Below are positions 2-23,630 of a stretch of DNA of 48,055 bases, in pieces. Under the pieces are notes generated by a model. The model saw nothing but the letters and a program-made list of their open reading frames with translations. It did not search any database and had not been told where the DNA came from. Both the position numbers and the translations under genes were made by a program. Within the stretch, counting starts at the first letter, position 1. Each line of letters starts with the position of its first letter. This DNA comes from Candidatus Omnitrophota bacterium (GTDB taxonomy: Bacteria; Omnitrophota; Gorgyraeia; Gygaellales; JBFMBJ01): positions 1-48,055 of the forward strand of contig JBFMBJ010000001.1 in assembly GCA_040755235.1 (NCBI GenBank), written 5' to 3'.

Positions 2-565
2 TATAGGTTTGACGGCAAGAGAATAGTAGTCGGTAGGGTTGAAAACGGCATTCTCAATAAAGGACAATCTATCAAAGCGCTACCCAGTAACCAGAATACA
101 AAAATTAAATCTATAGAGGTGTTTTTGAAAGAAAGCGTCAGAAGCTACCCGGGAGAAAGCATAGGGATTACTACTGAAGACGCCATATTTTTAGAGAGGG
201 GTAATGTAATTTGTGAGCAAGGAAAAGAACCAATTTTGACTGATAATTTCCAGGCCAATGTTTTTTGGATGGCAAAAAACAACTTTGATAAAAACGAGAG
301 AATCACATTAAGGTGCGCGACACAAGAGATTAGTTGTAGGGTAGAAAGGATAGAGGAAAGGATAGATTCTTCATCCCTTGAGGTAATAGAAAAAGATGCA
401 AATGAATTAAGATATCTTGAAGTAGGTAAGGTTATTATAAAGACTAAAAAGCCCATAGCCATAAAGGCTTTTAATGAAATGCAGGAATTGGGCAGGTTTG
501 TATTTGTGCATAATGATAACGTTTGCGCCGGCGGGATTATTACTGGAGTAGAGAGTAGAAAGTAG
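2..565 (+). CDS. cysN: Sulfate adenylyltransferase subunit 1 (CysN-type GTPase), C-terminal part; 5' end lies outside the window
   Basis: The frame is open from nt 2 (YRFDGKRIVVGRVENGILNKGQSIKALPS...). EF-Tu-like domain II/III pattern as in CysN: VFWMAK...LRCATQE...GRFVFV...VCAGGII. The stop TAG 563-565 lies inside the heptad array. Confidence 0.7.
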   Translation, partial: YRFDGKRIVVGRVENGILNKGQSIKALPSNQNTKIKSIEVFLKESVRSYPGESIGITTEDAIFLERGNVICEQGKEPILTDNFQANVFWMAKNNFDKNERITLRCATQEISCRVERIEERIDSSSLEVIEKDANELRYLEVGKVIIKTKKPIAIKAFNEMQELGRFVFVHNDNVCAGGIITGVESRK

Positions 566-576
566 CAAGTAGCGAG
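549..576. repeat. Heptad array TAGAGAG TAGAAAG TAGCAAG TAGCGAG (left flank of 4HB cassette 1)
   Basis: Four consecutive TAGNNAG units. The 7-nt period places TAG in all three + strand frames (549, 556, 563, 570). Confidence 0.9.
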
Positions 577-942
577 ATGGAAAGAAAACCAATAAAAAGC
601 GTTGAAGATTTTGAAGTTTAGCAAAAAGCTGTTGGATTATTCGAAGCTTTTTTAGAAGAAGATTTACCTATATTGAAACAGAATTTTGCTGGGAGGGCTT
701 TAGCGAATAATCAGTTAAGGAGCCTCGATTCTATATGCGCCAATATGGAAGAAGGTTACGAAAGAAAATCAGACAAAGAAATAAAAAATTTCTTTAGAAT
801 ATCTAAGGGCTCAACAGGAGAAGCAAGAGGAAGATATAAAAGATTAAAGAAAATATTACCGGAACAAATAATAAATAAACGCGTAGCTGTTCTAAATGAG
901 ATTAGAGCAATGCTTGAAGCTTTAATTAATAAATGGAAATAA
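577..942 (+). pseudogene. Four-helix-bundle protein (23S rRNA intervening-sequence protein / Avd-like family) with one in-frame TAG
   Basis: ATG 577 gives MERKPIKSVEDFEV, then TAG at 619-621, then QKAVGLFEAF...SICANMEEGYERKS...FFRISKGSTGEA in the same frame. The stop replaces the Tyr of the LEVYQ motif seen in the intact paralogs at 12996 and 14589. The ORF track only shows the TTG-started tail 673-942. Confidence 0.75.
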
Positions 943-944
943 AT

Positions 945-972
945 CTCTCTACTCTCTACTTGCTACTCGCTA
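945..972. repeat. Heptad array CTCTCTA CTCTCTA CTTGCTA CTCGCTA (right flank of 4HB cassette 1)
   Basis: Every unit is the reverse complement of TAGNNAG, so TAG falls in all three - strand frames. It forms a 23/28 imperfect inverted repeat with 549-576. Confidence 0.9.
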
Positions 973-10482: not shown

Positions 10483-12909
10483 ATGACTAAGATTTGTTTC
10501 ATAATTGATAATTTAAAGATAGCGGGTGCGCAGAGGCATCTTTTAAGATTGACCAAAGGATTAACCAACAGGGGGTATTCTCCAGAGGTTATTTCCCTTG
10601 GCATTAATGATGAAAATTTAATTAAAGAGATAAAGGCGCCATTGGCTACATTTAAAATGGATTGTATCTGGAGGATGAGTTTTTGGCTGAATTTTATACA
10701 GTTAATTAAATTTATTTCTAAGCAAAGGCCGGTAATAGTCCATACTTACCTTAATACTTCTAATGTCTTTGGGGTTTTATCTGCTAAAATTGCTAAGGTT
10801 CCCATTATTTTCTCCTCGCGCAGAGATTTAGGCCAATTCCGCTCGAGGTTAATTGGCTTGTTAGAGCGTTTTACTGCACATCTTAGCGATAAAGTTGTTT
10901 GTGTTTCCAATGCTGTTCAAAATCATGTTATTGATTCAGAGCGAATTAGTAGAGAGAAAACGGCTGTTATATATAATGGAGTAGACGTAGATAGTTTGCG
11001 AGTTAACGAGTTGACGAGTTGGCGAGTTAGAAAAGAAATCGGAATAGGTGAAAATGAATTAGCAGTTGGAATGATAGCGACGATGGACAGGGAAGAAAAG
11101 GGGCATAAGGAATTCATTGAAGCAGCGGGTTTGGTTGTAAAAGAAATTCCGAACGTCAAATTTCTGCTTATCGGCGACGGTTTTCTTCGTCAAAAGTTAG
11201 AAAACGCAATACGTGATACCTGCCTTGCCGGCAGGCAGGCGCATGACGCAATACGAGGCAAAGTTTTATTTCTTGGTAAACGTAACGGCATACCAGAATT
11301 ATTATCCACAATGGATGTGTCGGTGAACGCTTCATATTCAGAAGGAATGTCCAATACAATTTTAGAGTCTATGGCAGCTGGAGTGCCAGTAGTAGCTACA
11401 GCAATAGATGGCAATCTCGAAACTGTCAAAAGCTTACAGTTTGATTACAGTGATTTAGATAAAGATTACAGTGATAAAAATTGTGCAACTGGGATACTCG
11501 TGCCGCCAAAAGAGCCACAAGCTATGGCAAAAGCTATTATAAAGATACTTAAAGATAAGGAATTAGCTGTGAAGATGGGTGAAAACGCGAGGCGATTAGT
11601 TTACGAAAAATTCTCTCTTGAAACAATGGTGAATAATTACGCTAAACTTTATCAAGATTTATCCGCGCCAATCCGCGTCCAAAACAATCCGCGCCAATCC
11701 GCGTCCACAGTGGGTTATATCGTTTCTCTTTTTCCCTGTTGGTCAGAAACCTTTATCTTAAATGAAATAATAGAGTTAAAGAGAAAAGGTATTGAAGTGA
11801 CTATATTCTCTATAAGAAAAGATTTGGAAGCATTTATTCAAGAGAAGTCAAAACTGCTTATAAAAAATACAATATATCCAGAAAAGCCAGGTGTATTTAG
11901 GTCATTTGTATTTTGGGCTGTAAGAAAACCAGTGACATTGCTTTCAATTTTCTGGTTGGTTGTCAGTAAAAGATATTCAAGCTCAAAAGTTCTACTTAAG
12001 AACATCTGGTGTATTTTTGTCGGTTGCTACTTTGCTACTATTGTAAAAAAAGAGAATATCAAAAACCTCCATGCACATTTTGCAACCTACCCAACTTTAG
12101 TAGCTTTGGTCATATCAAGATTGACTAAGATTAGTTATACTTTTACCAATCATGCTCATGACATATTCTTAGAAAAAGCTCTTTTAAAAGAAAAATCCAG
12201 AGATGCAAAAGCCATAGTTGCTATCTCAAATTATAATAAGCAATATCTGGATAATATTTGTCAAAATGGAGTTATAGATAAGACGCACGTCATTCATTGC
12301 GGCTTAGATTTAGCTGAATTTGTTAATTTAAACGTCAAGCATAAAGATAATACGATTTTGAGTATCGGCAGATTAACCAAAATGAAGGGTTTTGAATATC
12401 TTATTAAAGCTTGCAATCAAATTAAAAATCGCCTGCCTGTCCAATGCCGCATAATTGGCGATGGTCCTTTGAATGATGAATTGGAAAGGTTAATTATTAA
12501 TTTAGGAGTAAGGAGTAGCGTAAAATTAAAAGGGGTAACGGACAACAGTGAGATTAAGCAATTATTACAGGAAAGTGCTGTATTTATCATGTCCAGCGTC
12601 TGGGATGAGCAGGATGGCCAAGATGGCATCCCGATCGTATTAATGGAGGCAATGGCAGCAGGCGTGCCGGTGATAGGTTCAAATATTTCAGGCATACCCG
12701 AATTGATCCAGGATGGTCAGACAGGGCTGTTGGTTGAGCCAGGCAATGTTGTAGATTTGGCAAAGAAGATTGAGCTTTTGTTGAACGATAAAGATTTGCA
12801 GGCTCGCTTAGCTAAAGCAGGCAGGCGTAAGGTTGAAGAGGAATTTGATATTCATAAGAGTGTAGAGAAGCTAATTGAGGTATTTAACTTATCGAGCTGT
12901 CATACATAG
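10483..12909 (+). CDS. Two GT4 glycosyltransferase modules in one ORF (tandem fusion through a repeat linker)
   Basis: Module 1 has SEGMSNTILESMAAGVPVVATAIDGNLE. Module 2 starts like a complete WcaL-type GT (VGYIVSLFPCWSETFILNEIIELKRKGIEV) and has DGIPIVLMEAMAAGVPVIGSNISGIPELIQDGQTGLLV. The junction is the 21-nt direct repeat at 11661-11707. An in-frame GTG at 11710 could be an internal start. Confidence 0.8.
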   Translation: MTKICFIIDNLKIAGAQRHLLRLTKGLTNRGYSPEVISLGINDENLIKEIKAPLATFKMDCIWRMSFWLNFIQLIKFISKQRPVIVHTYLNTSNVFGVLSAKIAKVPIIFSSRRDLGQFRSRLIGLLERFTAHLSDKVVCVSNAVQNHVIDSERISREKTAVIYNGVDVDSLRVNELTSWRVRKEIGIGENELAVGMIATMDREEKGHKEFIEAAGLVVKEIPNVKFLLIGDGFLRQKLENAIRDTCLAGRQAHDAIRGKVLFLGKRNGIPELLSTMDVSVNASYSEGMSNTILESMAAGVPVVATAIDGNLETVKSLQFDYSDLDKDYSDKNCATGILVPPKEPQAMAKAIIKILKDKELAVKMGENARRLVYEKFSLETMVNNYAKLYQDLSAPIRVQNNPRQSASTVGYIVSLFPCWSETFILNEIIELKRKGIEVTIFSIRKDLEAFIQEKSKLLIKNTIYPEKPGVFRSFVFWAVRKPVTLLSIFWLVVSKRYSSSKVLLKNIWCIFVGCYFATIVKKENIKNLHAHFATYPTLVALVISRLTKISYTFTNHAHDIFLEKALLKEKSRDAKAIVAISNYNKQYLDNICQNGVIDKTHVIHCGLDLAEFVNLNVKHKDNTILSIGRLTKMKGFEYLIKACNQIKNRLPVQCRIIGDGPLNDELERLIINLGVRSSVKLKGVTDNSEIKQLLQESAVFIMSSVWDEQDGQDGIPIVLMEAMAAGVPVIGSNISGIPELIQDGQTGLLVEPGNVVDLAKKIELLLNDKDLQARLAKAGRRKVEEEFDIHKSVEKLIEVFNLSSCHT
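10993..11030. repeat. In-frame octamer array (NNCGAGTT x4), copy a
   Basis: agtttgcgagttaacgagttgacgagttggcgagttag encodes SLRVNELTSWRVR. It is 35/38 identical to 13945-13982 in a paralogous GT4, whereas the flanking coding DNA is much less similar. Confidence 0.85.
11204..11255. repeat. In-frame ACGCAATACG pair (42-nt spacing) around a GC-rich hairpin
   Basis: acgcaatacg occurs at 11204-11213 and 11246-11255. The central cctgcc-ttgcc-ggcagg lies at 11219-11235. The segment encodes AIRDTCLAGRQAHDAIRG in a GT4 linker that is normally shorter. Confidence 0.8.
11443..11475. repeat. In-frame GATTACAGTGAT direct repeat, 21-nt period
   Basis: Perfect 12-mers at 11443-11454 and 11464-11475 encode DYSD twice, inside the GT4 E...G loop. 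The reverse complement atcactgtaatc occurs at 18878-18889. Confidence 0.85.
11661..11707. repeat. Perfect 21-nt direct repeat (atccgcgccaatccgcgtcca x2, 5-nt spacer) at the GT4-GT4 junction
   Basis: Units at 11661-11681 and 11687-11707. Each unit is itself two ATCCGCGNCA decamers. The region is translated as SAPIRVQNNPRQSAS. Confidence 0.9.
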
Positions 12910-12991
12910 TCATAGGTAGTCATAAAATGGTCATACAATTGTAAAAGATACTATAAGTATATTGTAATAAATAGTCATACATTGTAAAAAG
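12899..12991. repeat. GTCATA array (left flank of 4HB cassette 2)
   Basis: GTCATA at 12899, 12909, 12919, 12930 (10-11 nt phasing) and 12974. gtcatacaattgtaaaag and gtcatacattgtaaaaag are near duplicates. Stops occur in all three + frames, and the stop of the upstream GT (12907) lies inside the array. Confidence 0.85.
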
Positions 12992-12995
12992 GAGA

Positions 12996-13385
12996 ATGGA
13001 ATTGGCGGGAGATATAAGAGATTTTGATGATTTGGAAGTATATCAGCTGGCTTTAGAATTGGCAGATTGGATATATGATTTAACAAGCAATTTTCCTAGT
13101 GAAGAAAGGTTCAATGTTACCTCGCAGATAAGGGATGCTGCAACTTCAATTGGCGCAAATATAGCCGAAGGCTATGGTCGGTTTCACTATAAAGAAAACA
13201 TTCAATTTTGTAGACAAGCAAGAGGCTCTTTATCTGAGACAAAGCACTTTATGATTTTTAGCAATAAACGCAAGTATATTTCTGATGATATTTACAAAGA
13301 ATTTTTACAAAAATACAAGCAATTACAAATAAAAATTAACAATTATATTAATTCAATTGGTAAGAAGAATAGTGACGATGTATGA
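12996..13385 (+). CDS. Four-helix-bundle protein (23S rRNA IVS protein / Avd-like family)
   Basis: DFDDLEVYQLALEL..., RDAATSIGANIAEGYGRFHYKENIQFCRQARGSLSETKH. SD aaaggag lies 5 nt upstream. Confidence 0.85.
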   Translation: MELAGDIRDFDDLEVYQLALELADWIYDLTSNFPSEERFNVTSQIRDAATSIGANIAEGYGRFHYKENIQFCRQARGSLSETKHFMIFSNKRKYISDDIYKEFLQKYKQLQIKINNYINSIGKKNSDDV

Positions 13386-13417
13386 CAACATTTGACAATG
13401 GTATGACAATATATGAC
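13381..13417. repeat. TATGAC array (right flank of 4HB cassette 2; inverse of the GTCATA array)
   Basis: TATGAC at 13381, 13402 and 13412, plus TTTGAC at 13391 (10-11 nt phasing). The 4HB stop TGA 13383-13385 lies in the first unit. Confidence 0.85.
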
Positions 13418-14548
13418 GATTCACGTGCTTCGGCGCGAAAAATTAACATCCTGCACGTGATTTGGTCCTTAGAAAAAGGCGGCGCGGAAAGATTCTTGGT
13501 TTTGCTGGTTAAAAATTTTGACCAAAGCCGTTTCAATTCCATTGTTTGTTGCCTTAATTGGAAAGGCGAATGGGCAAGCGAACTTGAGGAAAAAGGAATC
13601 AAGGTTATTGCCTTAAATAAAAAAGGTAAGTTCGACATCTGTGTAATCTATAGAATAATCTGTGTAATCAGACAATATAAAATTGATATTGTAAATACTC
13701 ATCTTTGGGCAGCAGATTGCTTAGGAAGGGTTGCGGCTATTTTTGGGGGAGTGCCCATAATTATAAGCACAGTCCAAAATGTAGATATCTGGAAGAAGTT
13801 TTGGCATAAAATCATAGATAAGATGTTGGCGAACCGAACAACCAAATTTATTGCAGTTTCAAAAGCAGTTAAGGAGTTTTTGATTAATACAGAAAAGATT
13901 CCTGAAGAAAAAATTGAGATAATACCGAATGCGATTGATGCAGAAAGTTTGCGAGTTAACGAGTTGGCGGGTTTGCGAGTTAGAGAAGATTTAGGGATTA
14001 AAAACGAAGAGATAGTGCTGACTGTAATTGGAAGATTGGTTGAACAAAAGGGCCATAAATATTTGTTTGAAGCCTTGAGTATGCTGGATGGCAGGTATAG
14101 AGTGAAATTACTGGTGGTTGGTGATGGGCCGCTTAGAGAAAGTTTACAGTTTAAAGTTAACAGTTTACAGTTAGAGAATAAAATTCAATTCTTAGGGCAG
14201 AGAAGAGACATGGCAGAAATATTTAATGCGAGTGATGGTGTGATTTTGCCTTCGCTTTATGAGGGGTTGCCTGTAAGCATTTTAGAGGCGATGGCTGTTG
14301 GTAAGCCTGTAATCGCAACAGATGTTGGCGGCACTTGCGAACTTGTTAAAGATGGAGAAACTGGATTTTTGGCACAAGCAAAAAACAGCAAAAGCTTAGC
14401 ATCTAATATAGAAAAACTTTTAACTTCACCAGATAAAGGAAAAAAAATGGGAGAGAGAGGCAAGGAATTGGTTAATAATGCCTTTTCTATACAGGCTATA
14501 GTTAAAAAAACAGCAGATTTATATCTCTCACTTCTCGGTAACGGTTAG
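13382..14548 (+). CDS. Family 4 glycosyltransferase
   Basis: INILHVIWSLEKGGAE..., YEGLPVSILEAMAVGKPVIATDVGGTCELVKDGETGFL. The first ~15 codons (MTTFDNGMTIYDD) are a translation of the TATGAC array, so the true start is probably downstream (ATG 13403 or later). Confidence 0.8.
   Translation: MTTFDNGMTIYDDSRASARKINILHVIWSLEKGGAERFLVLLVKNFDQSRFNSIVCCLNWKGEWASELEEKGIKVIALNKKGKFDICVIYRIICVIRQYKIDIVNTHLWAADCLGRVAAIFGGVPIIISTVQNVDIWKKFWHKIIDKMLANRTTKFIAVSKAVKEFLINTEKIPEEKIEIIPNAIDAESLRVNELAGLRVREDLGIKNEEIVLTVIGRLVEQKGHKYLFEALSMLDGRYRVKLLVVGDGPLRESLQFKVNSLQLENKIQFLGQRRDMAEIFNASDGVILPSLYEGLPVSILEAMAVGKPVIATDVGGTCELVKDGETGFLAQAKNSKSLASNIEKLLTSPDKGKKMGERGKELVNNAFSIQAIVKKTADLYLSLLGNG
13637..13669. repeat. 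In-frame ATCTGTGTAATC direct repeat, 21-nt period
   Basis: Perfect 12-mers at 13637-13648 and 13658-13669 encode ICVIYRIICVI. Confidence 0.85.
13945..13982. repeat. In-frame octamer array (NNCGAGTT-type), copy b
   Basis: agtttgcgagttaacgagttggcgggtttgcgagttag encodes SLRVNELAGLRVR. It is 35/38 identical to 10993-11030. Confidence 0.85.
14141..14172. repeat. In-frame AGTTTACAGTT direct repeat, 21-nt period
   Basis: Units at 14141-14151 and 14162-14172 encode SLQFKVNSLQL. They share the TTACAG core with 11433-11475. Confidence 0.8.
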
Positions 14549-14581
14549 GGTAACGAAGCCAGTATCGGTAAGGGTAATGGC
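14535..14581. repeat. Flank A of 4HB cassette 3 (GGTAACG/GGTAAGG-type low-complexity array)
   Basis: tcggtaacggttagggtaacgaagccagtatcggtaagggtaatggc. It contains the GT stop TAG 14546-14548 and stops in all + frames. An inverted copy lies at 18716-18763. Confidence 0.85.
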
Positions 14582-14588
14582 AAAGTAA

Positions 14589-14984
14589 ATGGAAAATAAA
14601 AAACGAATAACAAGTTTTAAAGATTTAGAAGTATACCAGAATAGCTACAGAGCTATGCTAAGTGTAATGAAAGAGATTGTTCCGAAATTACCCGAGAGAG
14701 AAAAATACGACTTGGTAGATCAATTGAGTAGAGCCTGTAAGTCAATACCCAGATTGATAGCAGAAGGTTATGCTAAGCGGCACCAAAAGGCAGGTTTCCA
14801 GAAATATATTGATGATGCGATGAGCGAGTCTAATGAAATGGTTGTTAGTTTAAGCGAGTCGCGAGATATATACTTTAATTATATAGATGTGAAACAGTGC
14901 GATGAATTAATTGATATTTATGATAAGACAGGCAGGCAGCTTTATAAATTAGCTGAAAGTTGGACAAATTTTAAAAGACGATAG
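14589..14984 (+). CDS. Four-helix-bundle protein (23S rRNA IVS protein / Avd-like family)
   Basis: SFKDLEVYQNSYRA..., LSRACKSIPRLIAEGYAKRHQKAGFQKYIDDAMSESNE. Confidence 0.85.
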   Translation: MENKKRITSFKDLEVYQNSYRAMLSVMKEIVPKLPEREKYDLVDQLSRACKSIPRLIAEGYAKRHQKAGFQKYIDDAMSESNEMVVSLSESRDIYFNYIDVKQCDELIDIYDKTGRQLYKLAESWTNFKRR

Positions 14985-15040
14985 ACGTAACCCAAGGACG
15001 AAACGGGCATCCTAACCTTAACCTAAAAACGTTGCCATAA
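14983..15040. repeat. Flank B of 4HB cassette 3
   Basis: agacgtaacccaaggacgaaacgggcatcctaaccttaacctaaaaacgttgccataa. Its reverse complement matches 18579-18636 at 54/58 positions. Confidence 0.9.
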
Positions 15041-16293: not shown

Positions 16294-16311
16294 CTTATTT
16301 GTCTGAATTTG

Positions 16312-16326
16312 TCCCGCCCTTTTGGC
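16312..16326. repeat. Left arm of a perfect 15-bp inverted repeat around the GIY-YIG gene
   Basis: tcccgcccttttggc is the exact reverse complement of 16601-16615. Confidence 0.95.
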
Positions 16327-16337
16327 TGGAGGTAGGT

Positions 16338-16595
16338 ATGCATTATATTTATTTGTTAAAAAGCGAGAAAGACAACTATATTTATATTGGCAATACCAAT
16401 GATTTAGAAAGAAGATTGGTTGAGCATAATAGCGCTAACAATACAGCTACTAAGAAGCATAGACCTTTTAAATTAGTTTATTACGAAGCTTATTTAGATA
16501 AGAGGGATGCTTTAGATAGAGAAAATAAATTAAAACATCACGGAAGCGTTATTGGACATCTGAAGAAACGATTAAAATATAGTTTATCTTGTTAA
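16338..16595 (+). CDS. Small stand-alone GIY-YIG (URI-domain) nuclease family protein
   Basis: HYIYLLKSEKDNYIYIGNTNDLERRLVEHNS. SD ggagg at 16328-16332. The ORF-track start (TTG 16299) only adds a translation of the left IR arm. Confidence 0.85.
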   Translation: MHYIYLLKSEKDNYIYIGNTNDLERRLVEHNSANNTATKKHRPFKLVYYEAYLDKRDALDRENKLKHHGSVIGHLKKRLKYSLSC

Positions 16596-16600
16596 ATTTC

Positions 16601-16615
16601 GCCAAAAGGGCGGGA
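16601..16615. repeat. Right arm of the perfect 15-bp inverted repeat around the GIY-YIG gene
   Basis: gccaaaagggcggga, 5 nt after the TAA stop. Confidence 0.95.
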
Positions 16616-16628
16616 TTAATTCGTAGAC

Positions 16629-16685
16629 GCTCCGACATAGCGTCGGAGCTACAATTTACGAAAGCAATAGCGAATCGTAAATTGT
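16629..16685 (+). other. Two adjacent perfect hairpins (8-bp stem with 5-nt loop; 11-bp stem with 13-nt loop)
   Basis: gctccgac-atagc-gtcggagc (16629-16649) and acaatttacga-N13-tcgtaaattgt (16651-16685). There is no U-tract, so they are not classical terminators. Confidence 0.6.
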
Positions 16686-16707
16686 CTACTCATTAAGGGG
16701 GTGTCAA

Positions 16708-18543: not shown

Positions 18544-18578
18544 GGCGTCACAGCCGCCTGTCGTGTACTACTTCACAA

Positions 18579-18636
18579 TTATGGCAACGTTTTTAGGTTA
18601 CGGTTAGGATGCCAGTTTCGTGGTTGGGTTACGTCT
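18579..18636. repeat. Inverted copy of flank B
   Basis: ttatggcaacgtttttaggttacggttaggatgccagtttcgtggttgggttacgtct is the reverse complement of 14983-15040 at 54/58 positions. Confidence 0.9.
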
Positions 18637-18715
18637 TTCGTATTGAGAAAAATTATTCTAACTGCATTAATTTCAAGAATGTTGATTGCTTTTAAGCTTT
18701 ATATTTTTTCACGTA
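18637..18715 (-). pseudogene. Decayed remnant of a four-helix-bundle gene (about 20 N-terminal codons with a stop, the rest deleted)
   Basis: The minus strand reads gtgaaaaaatataaagcttaaaagcaatcaacattcttgaaattaatgcag. This aligns with the 5' end of 14589 (atggaaaataaaaaacgaataacaagttttaaagatttagaagtataccag). It sits between the inverted copies of flanks A and B. Confidence 0.55.
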
Positions 18716-18763
18716 GCCGTTACCTTAAACCGATACCGGCTTCGTTACCCTTGCCGTTACCGA
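18716..18763. repeat. Inverted copy of flank A
   Basis: gccgttaccttaaaccgataccggcttcgttacccttgccgttaccga is the reverse complement of 14535-14581, with a few mismatches and a 1-nt indel. Confidence 0.85.
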
Positions 18764-18891
18764 AATACTGAAGAACTACACTTCGGCAGGCAAGTTCCGC
18801 CCTTGATTGCAGAGATTAATAAAAACAGATTACTACGATTAAAACTAGAGAATGTAATCTCTGGAATCTTATGAAAAATCACTGTAATCAT

Positions 18892-19596
18892 ATGTTAAAA
18901 ATCTTAATGTATCATTCTGTCGGTTCGCTGAACTTAAGCGAAGTCGGCACAGAGCTTTATTCTGTCTCTGAAGAGAACTTCCGTCAGCAAATGAATTTTT
19001 TGCGCAATGCGCACGACGCAATACACAATACGCTAATAACCTTCGATGACGGCCTCCTCGACAACTACACAACTGCTTTTCCGATTCTTAAGGAGTTTGA
19101 CATTAAAGCATATTTTTTTATTCTAACTTCTAAGGTCAGGGAAGAGGGGTACATGAATTGGGAACAGATTAAGGAGTTGCATAATGCAGGCATGACAATT
19201 GGTTCACACGGGATGACGCACAGACTTTTAACTGAATTAAGCGAGAATGAATTATATTATGAATTATCCCAGTCTAAGAAAATACTTGAAGATAATTTAA
19301 GCCAACCTGTTGAGAATTTTTCAATTCCCAGAGGATTTTGTAATAAAAGAATAGAAGAAGCAGCAAAGAAAATTGGCTACAAAGCAATTTTTACTTCTAA
19401 TATCAAGGATAACAATGGGTTTAGAATCGGCAGAATCCCGGTAAAACGCGATTGGGATCTTAATCATTTTAAAAGTGTTTTGAATAATGGACTGTCTCCA
19501 AGAGAAAAAGTGGAGGAATTTGTTAAGCGTATAAGCAAGGAATTCCTCGGCGCAAGGGTTTACGATAAGATTAGGAGTAGGATTCTTAGTAGATAA
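18892..19596 (+). CDS. Polysaccharide deacetylase (NodB homology domain)
   Basis: ILMYHSV, ITFDDGLLDNY, GSHGMTH. The start was moved to ATG 18892 because the 7 upstream codons translate a repeat. Confidence 0.8.
   Translation: MLKILMYHSVGSLNLSEVGTELYSVSEENFRQQMNFLRNAHDAIHNTLITFDDGLLDNYTTAFPILKEFDIKAYFFILTSKVREEGYMNWEQIKELHNAGMTIGSHGMTHRLLTELSENELYYELSQSKKILEDNLSQPVENFSIPRGFCNKRIEEAAKKIGYKAIFTSNIKDNNGFRIGRIPVKRDWDLNHFKSVLNNGLSPREKVEEFVKRISKEFLGARVYDKIRSRILSR
19002..19033. repeat. In-frame copy of the GCGCAATRCGCACGACGCA...CAATACG dispersed repeat
   Basis: 27/32 identical to the intergenic copy at 23597-23628. It encodes RNAHDAIHNTL. The same AHDAI peptide is encoded at 11236-11256 in a GT4. 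Confidence 0.8.
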
Positions 19597-19598
19597 GA

Positions 19599-19646
19599 GT
19601 CATAAGTAGTCATAAGGTAGTCATACAATGGTCATAAATTGTCATA
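19599..19646. repeat. GTCATA array (left flank of the toxin-antitoxin cassette)
   Basis: GTCATA at 19599, 19609, 19620, 19631 and 19641 (10-11 nt phasing). It is visibly alignable with 12909-12945. Confidence 0.9.
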
Positions 19647-19711
19647 CGATTGTATGAGGCGAGCGTTACATAAATTCAGACTCGATATCTTAAAAATCCT
19701 TACTTTCGTCC

Positions 19712-19740
19712 TTGACGATTTCCTTACTTTGTGCTATACT
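19712..19740 (+). promoter_or_regulatory. Sigma-70-type promoter of the AbrB/toxin pair
   Basis: TTGACG (19712-19717), 17-nt spacer, TATACT (19735-19740). tccttacttt is directly repeated at 19697 and 19721 and is a possible operator. Confidence 0.6.
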
Positions 19741-19761
19741 TGTTACTGGAGGTGAACAAAG

Positions 19762-20022
19762 ATGACAATTACAATGACAGCAAAGAATCAAATAACCATA
19801 CCTAAGAAGATCACAAATGCTTTGGGCTTAGGGAAGGGGTCTATGTTCGAGGTAGAGGTCTCTAGAGATGGGATAGAGCTTATTCCTCTGGAGACAAAAG
19901 AAAGGCAGTTCACAGATGAGGAATACGTGAAATTAGAGACCCTTGCAGCCAAAGAAAAGGGGAAAGAAAAACATGTAACAAAAAGGTTCATCGATAATTT
20001 AAAAAAGGGAAAATCTAATTAA
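19762..20022 (+). CDS. AbrB/MazE/SpoVT-family antitoxin
   Basis: MTAKNQITIPKKITNALGLGKGSMFEVEV (swapped-hairpin motif). It overlaps the downstream gene by 1 nt (TAATG). Confidence 0.75.
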   Translation: MTITMTAKNQITIPKKITNALGLGKGSMFEVEVSRDGIELIPLETKERQFTDEEYVKLETLAAKEKGKEKHVTKRFIDNLKKGKSN

Positions 20023-20330
20023 TGTCTTTACGCCTTTATTACAGGCCTTCTTTTAAAAGAAGCATCAAGCGTTTAGGATATGAACAGAAGAAAACAGTAG
20101 GACTGATAATTGAATCTTTAGCTGTTTATTATTCTCGTGAGTGTAATCTGCTAGAGGCACAAAAGATAGCACCACGATTTTTTTATAAACAACTAAGAAA
20201 GCCCTATTATGAAGCCGGTATCGAAGGAACCATCCGAGTGATTATAAGACGAGAGGGTGAAAATTGTATTGTAGTATTAGCCGGGAATCATGACCAAATA
20301 AAACAATTTCTGGCCAGCGTACAGTGTTGA
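20022..20330 (+). CDS. Putative type II toxin (RelE/ParE-like small basic protein)
   Basis: Size, position after the AbrB antitoxin and translational coupling support the call. YRPSFKRSIKRLGYEQKKTVGLIIESL resembles RelE/ParE N-termini. The family assignment is tentative. Confidence 0.5.
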   Translation: MSLRLYYRPSFKRSIKRLGYEQKKTVGLIIESLAVYYSRECNLLEAQKIAPRFFYKQLRKPYYEAGIEGTIRVIIRREGENCIVVLAGNHDQIKQFLASVQC

Positions 20331-20373
20331 AGAAGTACTGCCAAAGGATAAAATAACCCCTCAGAAATCTCCC

Positions 20374-20412
20374 CATGACAATCTTGTGACAACAATATGA
20401 CAACCTTATGAC
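20374..20412. repeat. (C/T)ATGAC array (right flank of the toxin-antitoxin cassette)
   Basis: catgaca at 20374, tgtgac at 20385, tatgac at 20396 and 20407 (11-nt phasing). It is alignable with 13381-13417. Confidence 0.85.
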
Positions 20413-20421
20413 AATATATCG

Positions 20422-21537: not shown

Positions 21538-21571
21538 GAACGAGGGACGAGAGGCGATGGACGAAAGGCGG
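21526..21571. repeat. ACGAG-type octamer-like array straddling the GT2 stop
   Basis: aaacgagttaggaacgagggacgagaggcgatggacgaaaggcgg. It shares the aacgagtt unit with 10993-11030 and 13945-13982. Confidence 0.7.
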
Positions 21572-21760
21572 AAAACAAAATGCCTGACTATCTTACTAAA
21601 ATAGAGTATACTCCAATTTAGTAATACCAATTTGGAGTTTAATCTGGATAAAAAATCTGAAAAGAATACTTGATATAAAGCTTCCCCGGCGACAATCAGC
21701 GTTTTTATAGGGAGATAGAAAGAGAATCGACATCATATAAACTTTAATGGCAAAATTTTC

Positions 21761-21794
21761 TTGACAAAATAATCCCTTATGGTAATTTATTACC
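21761..21794 (+). promoter_or_regulatory. Possible sigma-70 promoter with an overlapping palindrome upstream of the MNT/HEPN pair
   Basis: TTGACA (21761-21766), 16-nt spacer, TAATTT. GGTAAT-TT-ATTACC palindrome at 21781-21794. Confidence 0.35.
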
Positions 21795-21811
21795 ATAAAC
21801 ATGGTGAAAAC

Positions 21812-22357
21812 ATGATATCTTTACGTTCAAAAGTGGCAATAAAATTACTGGATTATTATTTCCTTAATCCTGATGCTAAACATTATATCAATGAATTGGC
21901 GAGGACTTTAGACCTTGATCCTAAAAATACCGAAACTAAGCTTAAGGAATTCGAAAAAAAAGGCATTTTTAAAAGTGAATTCCGCGGTAAAGAAAGGTAT
22001 TTTTTCTTAGCAAAGGATAGCCCCGTTTTAGAGCATTACCGCCAGATTTTCCTGAAGACTTATGGTATAGAGAAGAGGCTTAAAGATACGCTACGAGGTA
22101 TTAAGGGACTTAAGGAGGCATATCTATTTGGCTCATACGCAACCAATAAGATGGATTTTTCAAGCGATATTGATATCTTGGCCATCGGTTCGCACTCTGT
22201 TTTGGAATTACAGAGGATGATTGTTAAGTTACAGAAGGATACAGACAGAGAAGTCAATGTAATGAATTTAAGCCTCAAGGAATTTGAGGTAAAGAAAAAA
22301 AAGAAAGACCCTTTTATAACCAATGTCTTTAAAACCAAGACTATAAGGATCGTATGA
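21812..22357 (+). CDS. Nucleotidyltransferase (MNT-type) with an N-terminal winged-helix domain
   Basis: HYINELARTL... wHTH-like N-terminus. AYLFGSYATNKMDFSSDIDILAIG is the G[SG]-x(n)-DxD NTase motif. The start was moved to ATG 21812. Confidence 0.75.
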   Translation: MISLRSKVAIKLLDYYFLNPDAKHYINELARTLDLDPKNTETKLKEFEKKGIFKSEFRGKERYFFLAKDSPVLEHYRQIFLKTYGIEKRLKDTLRGIKGLKEAYLFGSYATNKMDFSSDIDILAIGSHSVLELQRMIVKLQKDTDREVNVMNLSLKEFEVKKKKKDPFITNVFKTKTIRIV

Positions 22358-22751
22358 TTAATTTTGAAAGTCAATACTTTCAAAAATTGGCATTTCATTT
22401 AAAGAAAAACAAATTGAACAATTCTTAAAGTCTGCCTTACATGACATTAAGATTGCCGAAACATCTGATATTCCGGATGTTATTTTTAAATTCAGTTATG
22501 ATGCTTTGTTAAAATTAGGCATTGCGTTAATTGCAAAGAAGGGTTATAGAGTGAGAAGCGCAACAGGCCATCATATTAAGATATTAGAGAAACTTAGTCA
22601 GATACTTAAAGAAGAAGATATTATTGTTCTTGGCAATAAGATGCGTCAGGAACGCAATATTAATCTTTATGATGGCGGCTTTGTAGTAGGGGAAAAAGAC
22701 ATCCGGGAGTATCTAATTTTTGTAAAAAGTATTTTCAAAAAAGGTAATTGA
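22354..22751 (+). CDS. HEPN-domain protein, reading frame broken near the 5' end (-1 shift at an A5 run)
   Basis: ATG 22354 overlaps the MNT stop (ATGA) and reads MINFESQYFQK. The HEPN-like sequence IGISFKEKQIEQFLKSALHDIKIAE...GHHIKILEKL continues in the -1 frame from 22386. That frame has no ATG/GTG/TTG before 22506. Confidence 0.55.
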
Positions 22752-22753
22752 AA

Positions 22754-23566
22754 ATGAATAAAGCTAACATTGGTAAATTAGTAGCATTAGCTGGATTAAC
22801 TGCGCTTGCCTACATTCCTACCTTTGCCTGGATGATTGGCAGATGGACTGCCAAAGATACATATTACAGCCATGGTTTTTTAGTGCCATTAATTAGTATT
22901 TTTTTAATTTGGCAAAAGAGGCAAGATTTAAAGAAACTAAAGATTAAGCCTTCTAATCTTGGCTGGGTATTTTTTGGCTCTGGTATATTAATTCATGCGA
23001 TAAGCGCGTTATGGAGAGTGTATTTCTCGTCGGGATTTTCTTTAATTATAGTTCTAATCGGGCTGGTTTTATTATTTTTAGGCAAGGAATTTTTAAAAGA
23101 AACTTTATTCGCAATACTTTTCTTCGCCTTTATGATTCCTTTACCTCTGGTTGCTATTGCCAACATAAGTTTTAAACTAAAAATTTTTGCCGCTAAAATT
23201 TCAACCGTTATCATTAATAAATTAGGCGTTCCGGCAATAAGAGACGGCAGTGTGATAAAAACAATGCATTCTTATTTGGTAGTAGAGGACCCTTGCTCTG
23301 GGATAAGAAGCTTAATTGCTCTTATTGCCCTGGGTGCATTGATGGCATATTTTAGTAACATTTCCAAGCTTAAAAAGACAATTCTTTTTATATCCTCAAT
23401 TCCTATCGCAATCGCAACAAACGTAATCAGGATAGTTACTTTGTCGTTAGTAAGTGAAATGTATGGAGCGAAATTAGCAACCGGTACATTTCATAATATA
23501 ATGGGTGTTTTGGTTTTTGTCTTTGCATTTATTGGTCTGGCCTTGATAGCCAAGATCCTGGAGTAG
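22754..23566 (+). CDS. Exosortase (EpsH/Xrt family transpeptidase)
   Basis: YYSHGFLVPLISIFLIW, catalytic-Cys motif EDPCSGIRSL, NVIRIVTL, and multiple TM helices. Confidence 0.9.
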   Translation: MNKANIGKLVALAGLTALAYIPTFAWMIGRWTAKDTYYSHGFLVPLISIFLIWQKRQDLKKLKIKPSNLGWVFFGSGILIHAISALWRVYFSSGFSLIIVLIGLVLLFLGKEFLKETLFAILFFAFMIPLPLVAIANISFKLKIFAAKISTVIINKLGVPAIRDGSVIKTMHSYLVVEDPCSGIRSLIALIALGALMAYFSNISKLKKTILFISSIPIAIATNVIRIVTLSLVSEMYGAKLATGTFHNIMGVLVFVFAFIGLALIAKILE

Positions 23567-23569
23567 TAG

Positions 23570-23630
23570 CATATCGTGTATAGCGTATTGAGTATTGCGC
23601 AATACGCACGACGCACAACGCAATACGAAA
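23570..23630. repeat. Cargo-less palindromic element of the CGTATTG / CAATACG family
   Basis: The left half is cgtattgagtattgcg and the right half is cgcaatacgcacgacgcacaacgcaatacg. The central perfect 14-bp palindrome gtattgcgcaatac lies at 23592-23605. Confidence 0.85.

Follow-up and report, generated by a model that had tools for sequence, protein, structure and literature searches.

Introduction

The PF05635/TIGR02436 proteins form a very large family of four-helix bundles (4HB) with solved structures and, to our knowledge, no known function outside the diversity-generating retroelements. Tandem heptamer repeats in bacteria have, as far as we know, been unexplained for decades. The two were found together in a 48,055-nt stretch of a Candidatus Omnitrophota genome (contig JBFMBJ010000001.1 of assembly GCA_040755235.1, positions 1–48,055, forward strand), which is called the window throughout. 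At 547–974 of the window, a 4HB open reading frame (ORF) was enclosed by two inverted arrays of 7-nt units. This element is probably a promoter-less cassette of the intervening sequence (IVS) type, composed of an S23p/Avd-like 4HB gene between inverted AGTAGNN arrays and inserted in an operon.

The closest described system is the IVS of 23S rRNA, which carries an S23p (PF05635) ORF in Coxiella burnetii, Leptospira, Brucella, and Xanthomonas (Warrier et al. 2016, PMC4990558). The Coxiella IVS is an element of 428 nt with a 28-bp stem of terminal repeats that is cut by RNase III (PMC4990558). Its S23p ORF is directly preceded at the ATG by two to three tandem GACAGAT heptamers and one degenerate copy, and the heptamer copy number is variable among strains. 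The ORF is decaying and is untranslated unless a ribosome-binding site is engineered (PMC4990558).

Heptamer arrays have also been reported apart from IVS elements. Direct repeats of TAACTGA were described just 5' of start codons in Beggiatoaceae, Cyanobacteria, and Bacteroidetes, and because the forward repeats stop all three frames, they overlap only the ends of ORFs (MacGregor 2015, PMC4679880). The partner of the cyanobacterial short tandemly repeated repetitive (STRR) sequences and of the Nostoc heptamer repeats is still being sought (bioRxiv 10.1101/2022.06.06.494920). In Geobacter metallireducens, paired hepta- and octanucleotide arrays on opposite strands were listed as 'putative global regulator binding sites', for example a pair of five-copy TTCTGAA arrays in the moaA–mosC interval, separated by ~100 bp (Aklujkar et al. 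2009, PMC2700814).

Structure of the element at 547–974

The left array (549–576, + strand) was composed of four units, TAGAGAG TAGAAAG TAGCAAG TAGCGAG, and abutted the ATG of the 4HB ORF at 577. The right array (945–972, + strand), CTCTCTA CTCTCTA CTTGCTA CTCGCTA, started 2 nt past the TAA stop codon at 940–942. The core of the left unit was AGTAG followed by two variable nucleotides (AGTAGNN), and the right array was the reverse complement of such units. The sequences and coordinates of the arrays and their 23/28 inverted repeat, which the original prediction had described, were confirmed. The complete arms of the terminal inverted repeat, 547–578 and its partner 943–974, were 32 nt long with a complementarity of 84%, the 23 matches lying in the 28-nt core, and the whole element was 428 nt in length.

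The arrays were exceptional within the window. All six occurrences of TAGNNAGTAGNNAG in the 48 kb were located within the two arrays, against an expectation of 0.08 from shuffled sequences, and none of 100 shuffles reached six. The inverted-repeat local-alignment score of the element was 19.5, compared with 17 at the 99th percentile of a cross-locus null. When folded as RNA, the two arms were paired in both the minimum free energy (MFE) and centroid structures, with a predicted MFE of −103.7 kcal/mol (z = −2.8) and with the AUG and the stop codon at the top of the stem. When the two arms were joined through a short loop, the predicted fold was −33.7 kcal/mol (z = −6.2). Neither promoter-like nor terminator-like sites were found on the sense strand within 300–1200, and an Rfam scan of the window matched no family, rRNA included.

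If the reverse-complemented units were kept in the same order, 27 of 28 positions matched, versus 23 of 28 in the true inverted register. This 'mirror' order was considered as a mechanistic clue and rejected. The same order was better in 5 loci, the inverted order in 4, and 15 were ties, so the effect was put down to chance, the arrays being of low complexity.

Insertion at the cysN/AlkP junction

The element was flanked upstream by the 3' portion of a CysN-like gene (2–565, + strand; sulfate adenylyltransferase large subunit, with NCBIfam CysN matches) and downstream by a gene of the alkaline phosphatase family (AlkP, PF01663; 994–2283, + strand). In two contigs of related Omnitrophota, the AlkP-family homologs (73% identical in L213 and 71% in L214) directly followed cysN. 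The cysN–AlkP spacers of these contigs were 7 and 13 nt, respectively, and contained neither a 4HB gene nor arrays. The arrays and the ORF form one unit, as had been proposed, and it is absent from the L213 and L214 junctions.

The C-terminus of CysN also differed. The CysN proteins of the relatives ended in AGGIITNTE or AGGIVTD, that is, 1–3 residues past the AGGI(I/V)T motif, while that of the window ended in AGGIITGVESRK. Its last six codons, GVESRK, were encoded by the left array, and the reading frame stopped at the third TAG of the array (563–565), exactly where the original prediction had placed it. The empty sites and the altered CysN end indicate that the cassette overwrote the native cysN stop codon and that the array provides a new one. 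The comparison therefore shows, at the level of sequence, that 547–974 is an inserted cassette between the co-directional cysN and AlkP-family genes. As is characteristic of a mobile element, it was present or absent at an orthologous site, and copies were found in unrelated contexts.

At the same junction, a further Omnitrophota contig, L218, carried an AbiEi/AbiEii-like pair (780–2520) instead of the 4HB cassette, and ~100 nt of the cysN 3' end were duplicated after this insert. Insertions thus appear to recur between cysN and the AlkP-family gene.

The TAG triplets of the left array lay in frames 0, 1, 2, and 0 of the + strand, and those of the right array were distributed likewise on the − strand. 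The statement that TAG occurs in three frames on both sides of the gene was therefore correct. The coverage of all frames arises because 7 is coprime to 3 and the unit contains TAG. It is a by-product of the 7-nt unit, yet it makes insertion at the 3' end of cysN harmless.

Orthologous cassettes in other operons

Orthologous 4HB cassettes were present in at least five unrelated operons, and all were co-directional with their neighbours. They were located between genes for a nitroreductase and a hypothetical protein (L001), downstream of a gene for an oligopeptide ATP-binding cassette (ABC) ATPase (L003), within a hydrogenase-like cluster between its DRTGG and PHP genes (L009–L012 and L219, the L009–L012 protein being named from a WOR-3 bacterium), between genes for a lipid glycosyltransferase and a GT2 protein (L221), and between pdxJ and acpS (L225). 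The same array type was found at the same position in L001, L003, L009, L038, L219, L221, and L225. The TAGNNAG units stopped 0–1 nt short of the 4HB ATG in every orthologous cassette, and the CTNNCTA units began 0–3 nt past the 4HB stop codon in seven of eight elements, with ~30 nt in L009. The array copy number ranged from 1 to 4 on the left and from 3 to 7 on the right, and the stop codon of the upstream gene lay 5–31 nt before the 4HB ATG. The comparison with orthologous cassettes that had been suggested earlier thus bore out the arrangement, with arrays of one type next to both the start and the stop codon. In L001, three 4HB genes occurred within 5.4 kb, each with a unit of its own (GTAACNA, TAGNNAG, and GAGTATT).

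Inverted heptamer arrays around 4HB genes of many phyla

A scan of one genome per species gave 565 confirmed 4HB loci among 600 candidates, and the best 80 were used for comparison. They included members of Planctomycetota, Cyanobacteria, Chloroflexota, Bacteroidota, Acidobacteriota, the Candidate Phyla Radiation (CPR), Alphaproteobacteria, and Campylobacterota. Full flanks were available for 77 of them, on which the flank statistics are based. When 130 nt of upstream flank were aligned with 130 nt of reverse-complemented downstream flank, the mean score was 16.8, compared with 7.7 for a null of cross-locus pairs (n = 77). The score exceeded the 95th percentile of the null in 50 of the 77 loci and the 99th percentile in 38. 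An array was called where it was stronger than 95% of control windows, and on this basis tandem arrays were present upstream in 51 loci (66%) and downstream in 39 (51%). The period was 7 in 40 of the 51 upstream and 31 of the 39 downstream arrays, and 8 in nearly all others. Neighbouring genes were co-oriented with the 4HB gene in 67/76 cases upstream and 52/71 downstream. None of the 80 loci examined was inside an rRNA gene.

The units themselves varied by locus (GGACGGT, GGTAATG, GGAGTAG, GTCATTT, GGCAGTC, AGCGAGT, and others). Unit similarity tracked protein identity, with 61.5% where the units were identical versus ~35% where they were distant (permutation p = 0.0005).

Several of these loci had particular surroundings. 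A cassette of an Omnitrophota genome (L159, 1363–2124) was located between two tRNA genes, and one of an Anaerolineae genome (L139, 1277–1857) directly followed a thiamine pyrophosphate (TPP) riboswitch and preceded the gene that the riboswitch presumably controls. The 4HB loci of Nostoc and Dolichospermum (L148, L153, L207, and L174) were flanked by STRR-like GTCATTT/TTGGTCA and GGTAATG arrays. We take TTGGTCA to be the heptamer of classical STRR2; in that case, some of the STRR sequences may represent the termini of 4HB cassettes.

The arrays were also compared with the proposal, made in the original prediction, that their stops in all frames resemble an engineered translational insulator. 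Such an insulator would serve the host and would be selected for stops in all frames of both strands, against translation entering the gene. The unit of the AGTAGNN cassettes does contain TAG and cysN does terminate in the array. There was, in addition, a weak trend towards inward stops (24 versus 14 upstream, 17 versus 11 downstream), but the trend was not significant (sign test, p = 0.14 and p = 0.34, respectively). The stops were not general, since only 16 of the 51 upstream arrays stopped every sense frame and 8 had no stop on either strand. The period of 7 alone gives coverage of all frames for any unit with a stop codon, and the cassette, being absent from the relatives, is no conserved host feature. 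The insulator reading is largely refuted by these results and is considered very improbable.

Polarity, and arrays without the gene

The arrays around 4HB genes had a fixed polarity. Upstream, 45 of 49 arrays had more G than C (p = 8e-10), and downstream, 31 of 35 had more C than G (p = 3.5e-6).

A metagenome scan for three consecutive TAGNNAG units gave 120 stretches. Of these 120 stretches, 118 had no 4HB gene and two had one between mirrored arrays. The AGTAGNN arrays do not, therefore, need the gene in cis. TAGNNAG arrays were accordingly rejected as a specific marker of 4HB cassettes, the pattern also matching many other AGTAGNN arrays, which are often cargo-less hairpins. Enough downstream sequence was available for 109 arrays, 50 of which had a complementary partner array downstream. 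The partner was within 100 nt in 37 (cargo-less hairpins) and at the distance of a 4HB gene in three. Arrays of 10–19 or more AGTAGNN copies occurred in the low-GC metagenome contigs L048, L054, L086, and L118; these very long arrays may be unrelated microsatellites, possibly eukaryotic.

The cargo-less AGTAGNN hairpins had the same polarity as the arrays around genes, with the G-rich arm first in 32 and second in one (p = 8e-9). The G-rich arm is thus 5' of the C-rich arm on either strand, beyond what stops alone explain. Avoidance of an exposed, Rho-attracting C-rich arm during transcription is one possibility.

The 4HB reading frame and its TAG codon

The 4HB ORF (577–942, + strand; 121 codons) encoded a '23S rRNA intervening-sequence protein' (PF05635, TIGR02436) with a single in-frame TAG, codon 15, at 619–621. 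When the Tyr was restored at this codon, the protein matched TIGR02436 with 52.4 bits (5e-14; cut-off 24) and belongs to that profile. The ortholog P0002 matched PF05635 with 45.9 bits (cut-off 33.8), and the two window paralogs with 120.7 and 71.2 bits. At least 120 close homologs of the restored protein were found, with identities of 65–88% and mostly exactly 121 residues in length.

The AlphaFold2 model of P0002 (predicted local distance difference test, pLDDT, 91.6) was composed of four helices, residues 13–33, 37–62, 67–92, and 96–119. A sequence search of P0002 against the PDB gave no match; the matches came from the fold search. With Foldseek, the model was best matched by 2RLD and 2GSC (template modelling, TM, score 0.82) and by Avd of the diversity-generating retroelements (bAvd; 4DWL/8UB7).

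The lesion affected an invariant position. The TAG replaced the Tyr of the (D/E)(F/L)EVYQ motif, which is Y in both intact paralogs of the window (12996–13385 and 14589–14984). Among 75 homologs of 121 residues, codon 15 was Tyr in every one and TAG in none. The earlier statement that a TAG at the Tyr of LEVYQ is the only lesion was confirmed against the two paralogs, and with it the 577–942 copy has no intact frame for the 4HB protein. A single substitution at a Tyr codon (TAY to TAG) suffices to produce it. The remainder of the ORF was as conserved as intact homologs, with one residue unseen in the 75 homologs, compared with a leave-one-out mean of 2.2, and the nearest homolog had 88% identity, which is normal for the family. 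The best reading of the copy is recent inactivation, as had been suggested; the TAG most likely reflects either a nonsense mutation of TAY that arose very recently or a wrong base call, and not recoding.

An artefact of sequencing, assembly, or population consensus, with an intact gene (TAT or TAC), is rather unlikely. The unrelaxed remainder of the ORF, with its one novel residue versus a mean of 2.2 in intact homologs and its normal identity of 88%, is consistent with it, as is the origin of the sequence from a contig of a metagenome-assembled genome (MAG). A single substitution outside a homopolymer is, however, atypical of assembler errors. The collections contained no other copy of the contig for comparison. 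Such an artefact is compatible with the cassette explanation and would alter only the status of the window copy.

Expression despite the TAG had been raised in the original prediction in two forms, programmed readthrough or suppression and an 89-residue protein from the internal TTG at 673. The ORF is intact 3' of the TAG, and the TTG is real and is the start used by NCBI for the 89-residue annotation (P0093; 673–942, + strand). TAG is, however, a regular stop codon, ending 12 of the 43 long ORFs of the window, cysN among them (TAA 23, TAG 12, TGA 8). Neither a tRNA nor pyrrolysine (Pyl) machinery was found in the 48-kb window, and the homologs have Tyr in 75 of 75 cases. There is thus no support for readthrough or recoding, and an alternative genetic code or pyrrolysine insertion was rejected on the same TAG usage and lack of a tRNA in the window. 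As the TTG is codon 33 and the predicted helix 1 comprises residues 13–33, the product from 673 would lack helix 1 of the modelled bundle. Both forms of expression are judged highly improbable.

Other cassettes and arrays in the window

Two further 4HB cassettes were present on the + strand. The second (12897–13420) contained an intact 4HB gene at 12996–13385 between GTCATA-type arrays with a period of 10–11 (12897–12990) and TATGAC arrays (13373–13420), and its inverted-repeat score of 14 was above the 95th percentile of the null. The third (14533–15040) had GGTAAC/GGTTAG-type arms around an intact 4HB gene (14589–14984). Its inverted repeat was weaker, with a score of 10, just below the 95th percentile.

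The arms of both cassettes were also found without the 4HB gene. An ORF-less copy of the third cassette's two arms, similar to miniature inverted-repeat transposable elements (MITEs), was located at 18557–18778 on the − strand, with ~55 nt between its arms, which were 81–88% identical to those of the third cassette. The GTCATA/TATGAC arms of the second cassette enclosed another cargo at 19593–20419 (+ strand), a toxin–antitoxin-type pair composed of a MazE-like antitoxin gene (19762–20022) and a 102-residue ORF (20022–20330).

The annotated or longest start of the glycosyltransferase gene at 13382–14548, ATG 13382, was located inside the right array of the second cassette (MTTFDNGMTIYDD...), and the true start is probably further downstream. 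Short-period arrays were also found in frame within the coding sequences (CDSs) of glycosyltransferase and polysaccharide-deacetylase-like genes, at 10999–11029, 13950–13990, 14141–14172, and 19003–19035. Their units were CGAGTTAA (3.9 copies), TTGCGAGTTA (2 copies), AGTTTAC (4.6 copies), and a CGCAATA/CGCACGA-like stretch, and the peptides that they added to the proteins were unusual, for example LRVNEL..RVR and SLQFKVNSLQ. A CDS seems to tolerate the insertion of an array if the frame has no stop codon.

Three other regions contained repeats. A small GIY-YIG ORF (PF01541, 98 residues; 16299–16622) was located between 22-nt inverted repeats (16305–16326 and 16601–16622) that were 91% complementary and not heptad-like, with more hairpins at 16627–16690. 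A nucleotidyltransferase gene (PF01909) and a small ORF (22506–22751, no Pfam match) occupied 21541–22751 between operon genes. The nucleotidyltransferase gene was preceded by two copies of CGAGGGACGAAAGG at 21541–21570, and no inverted partner array matched downstream of the pair (score 6). Adjacent arrays of GAGTATAGCGTATC and CGCAATA were located at 23561–23627 between the exosortase and EpsI genes; they were rejected as a cargo-less array hairpin, the predicted fold being no better than shuffles (z = −0.2 and −0.7).

Comparison with known systems

When compared with the 23S rRNA IVS, the element at 547–974 had the same protein family, the same length of 428 nt, a stem of ~28 bp around the ORF, and the same order of parts, with the S23p/4HB ORF in the loop of a long terminal stem after the tandem heptamers. 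Heptamers of variable number directly before the ATG, a poor or absent Shine–Dalgarno sequence, and an ORF with a tendency to decay were also shared. The differences are the host, which is a protein-coding operon (cysN/AlkP) instead of helix 45 of 23S rRNA, the heptad, which is AGTAGNN in place of the GACAGAT of Coxiella, and the RNase III excision, which is proposed in the window by analogy.

The likeness to Avd was structural, with Foldseek probabilities of 0.98–1.00 and TM scores of 0.63–0.71 to 4DWL, 8UB7, 8UB8, 8UBB, and 8UBE. A weak NF033474 match of window paralog 2 (25.6 bits) was below the equivalog cut-off of 80 bits, and neither a reverse transcriptase nor a template or variable repeat was found near the window cassette.

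The TAACTGA, STRR, and Nostoc repeats resemble the arrays in that tandem 7-nt units lie a few nucleotides 5' of starts and overlap the ends of upstream ORFs. In those reports, each array is direct and stands alone, unpaired and unconnected with 4HB genes, whereas those of the window are inverted pairs around such a gene. The Geobacter arrays, inverted pairs of 3–5 tandem 7–8-nt units between operon genes, correspond to the cargo-less form seen in the 37 metagenome stretches, but were read as sites for IHF/HU, and neither an enclosed gene nor a 4HB link was reported. MITEs with their autonomous transposons, and the repetitive extragenic palindromes (REPs) with their associated tyrosine transposases (RAYTs; together REPtrons), likewise have terminal inverted repeats around a small gene, ORF-less derivatives (here 18557–18778), and intergenic positions within operons. 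Unlike these elements, the window cassette encoded neither a transposase nor a Y1 nuclease domain, a target-site duplication was not detected, and its ends were heptad arrays of variable copy number instead of a fixed terminal inverted repeat or REP hairpin.

Proposed mechanism and alternatives

By analogy with the Coxiella IVS, the cassette would be transcribed within the host operon, and the two arrays would pair into a stem of ~27–30 bp that encloses exactly the ORF, from AUG to stop codon. RNase III would then cut the stem and the cassette would be excised from the operon transcript. The 4HB ORF has no Shine–Dalgarno spacing, so its translation, if any, would depend on ribosomes that terminate in the left array, by coupling to the termination of the upstream gene.

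Several observations weigh against the proposal of an IVS-type cassette. On the sense strand, G:U mismatches between the arms were no more frequent than A:C mismatches (93 versus 97), and there is thus no signature of selection for a stem in the sense RNA rather than for an inverted repeat in DNA. As to mobility, no target-site duplication was visible at the cassette junctions, and no family match to a transposase, nuclease, or recombinase was found, the 4HB gene being the sole ORF of the 547–974 cassette. As to generality, the 80 comparison loci were chosen as the best tblastn matches to a single query alignment and are not a random sample of the family, and the 4HB gene was rare among the metagenome arrays described above.

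It is possible, though not favoured, that the arrays are DNA or RNA binding sites for a sequence-specific multimeric protein, most economically the cassette's own 4HB protein, which is predicted to be pentameric. On this reading, the cassette would be autonomous and the ORF-less array pairs would be its non-autonomous derivatives, which is compatible with the IVS-type cassette. Pentamers were reported for bAvd, XCC0516, and BT_0352 (PMC4990558). Avd, which was among the top structural matches (4DWL and 8UB7, with 2GSC and 2RLD), is part of an RNA–protein complex, and the literature still seeks a partner of the heptamer repeats (bioRxiv 10.1101/2022.06.06.494920; PMC2700814). Heptad unit and 4HB clade co-vary, but simple joint inheritance or movement of arrays and gene would give this result just as well, and most metagenome arrays have no 4HB gene nearby. 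The main support for action of the 4HB protein in trans is given by the shared arms, since the GTCATA arms are common to the intact 4HB cassette and the toxin–antitoxin cassette of the window, and the arms of the third cassette recur on the ORF-less copy. Shared descent explains the shared arms equally well.

Significance

As a single locus, the probable IVS-type cassette at 547–974 is an ordinary example of its class. The class, 4HB genes of operons between inverted heptamer arrays in many phyla, with an architecture identical to that of the 23S rRNA IVS, appears to be undescribed as such. In the full-text literature, no paper was found that links 4HB genes outside rRNA to inverted heptamer arrays, although the coverage was incomplete and a prior description is possible.

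More tentatively, 4HB genes within inverted heptamer arrays might form one widespread, unnamed class of operon cassettes, of which the 23S rRNA IVS would be the rRNA-resident minority. Pentameric 4HB proteins might recognise their cognate arrays in trans, for propagation or RNA processing, and many bacterial heptamer repeats, such as the STRR-like repeats, the Geobacter pairs, and the cargo-less hairpins, might be ORF-less derivatives with the G-rich arm first.

For annotation, the cassettes change where and how host genes end, as with the 3' end and stop codon of cysN. They can yield false downstream starts (13382) and lead to truncated calls such as the 89-residue protein. For the PF05635/TIGR02436 family, the locus provides a tie to the heptamer repeats, as roughly two in three of the 4HB genes in a phylogenetically broad sample were located between inverted 7-nt arrays in operons.

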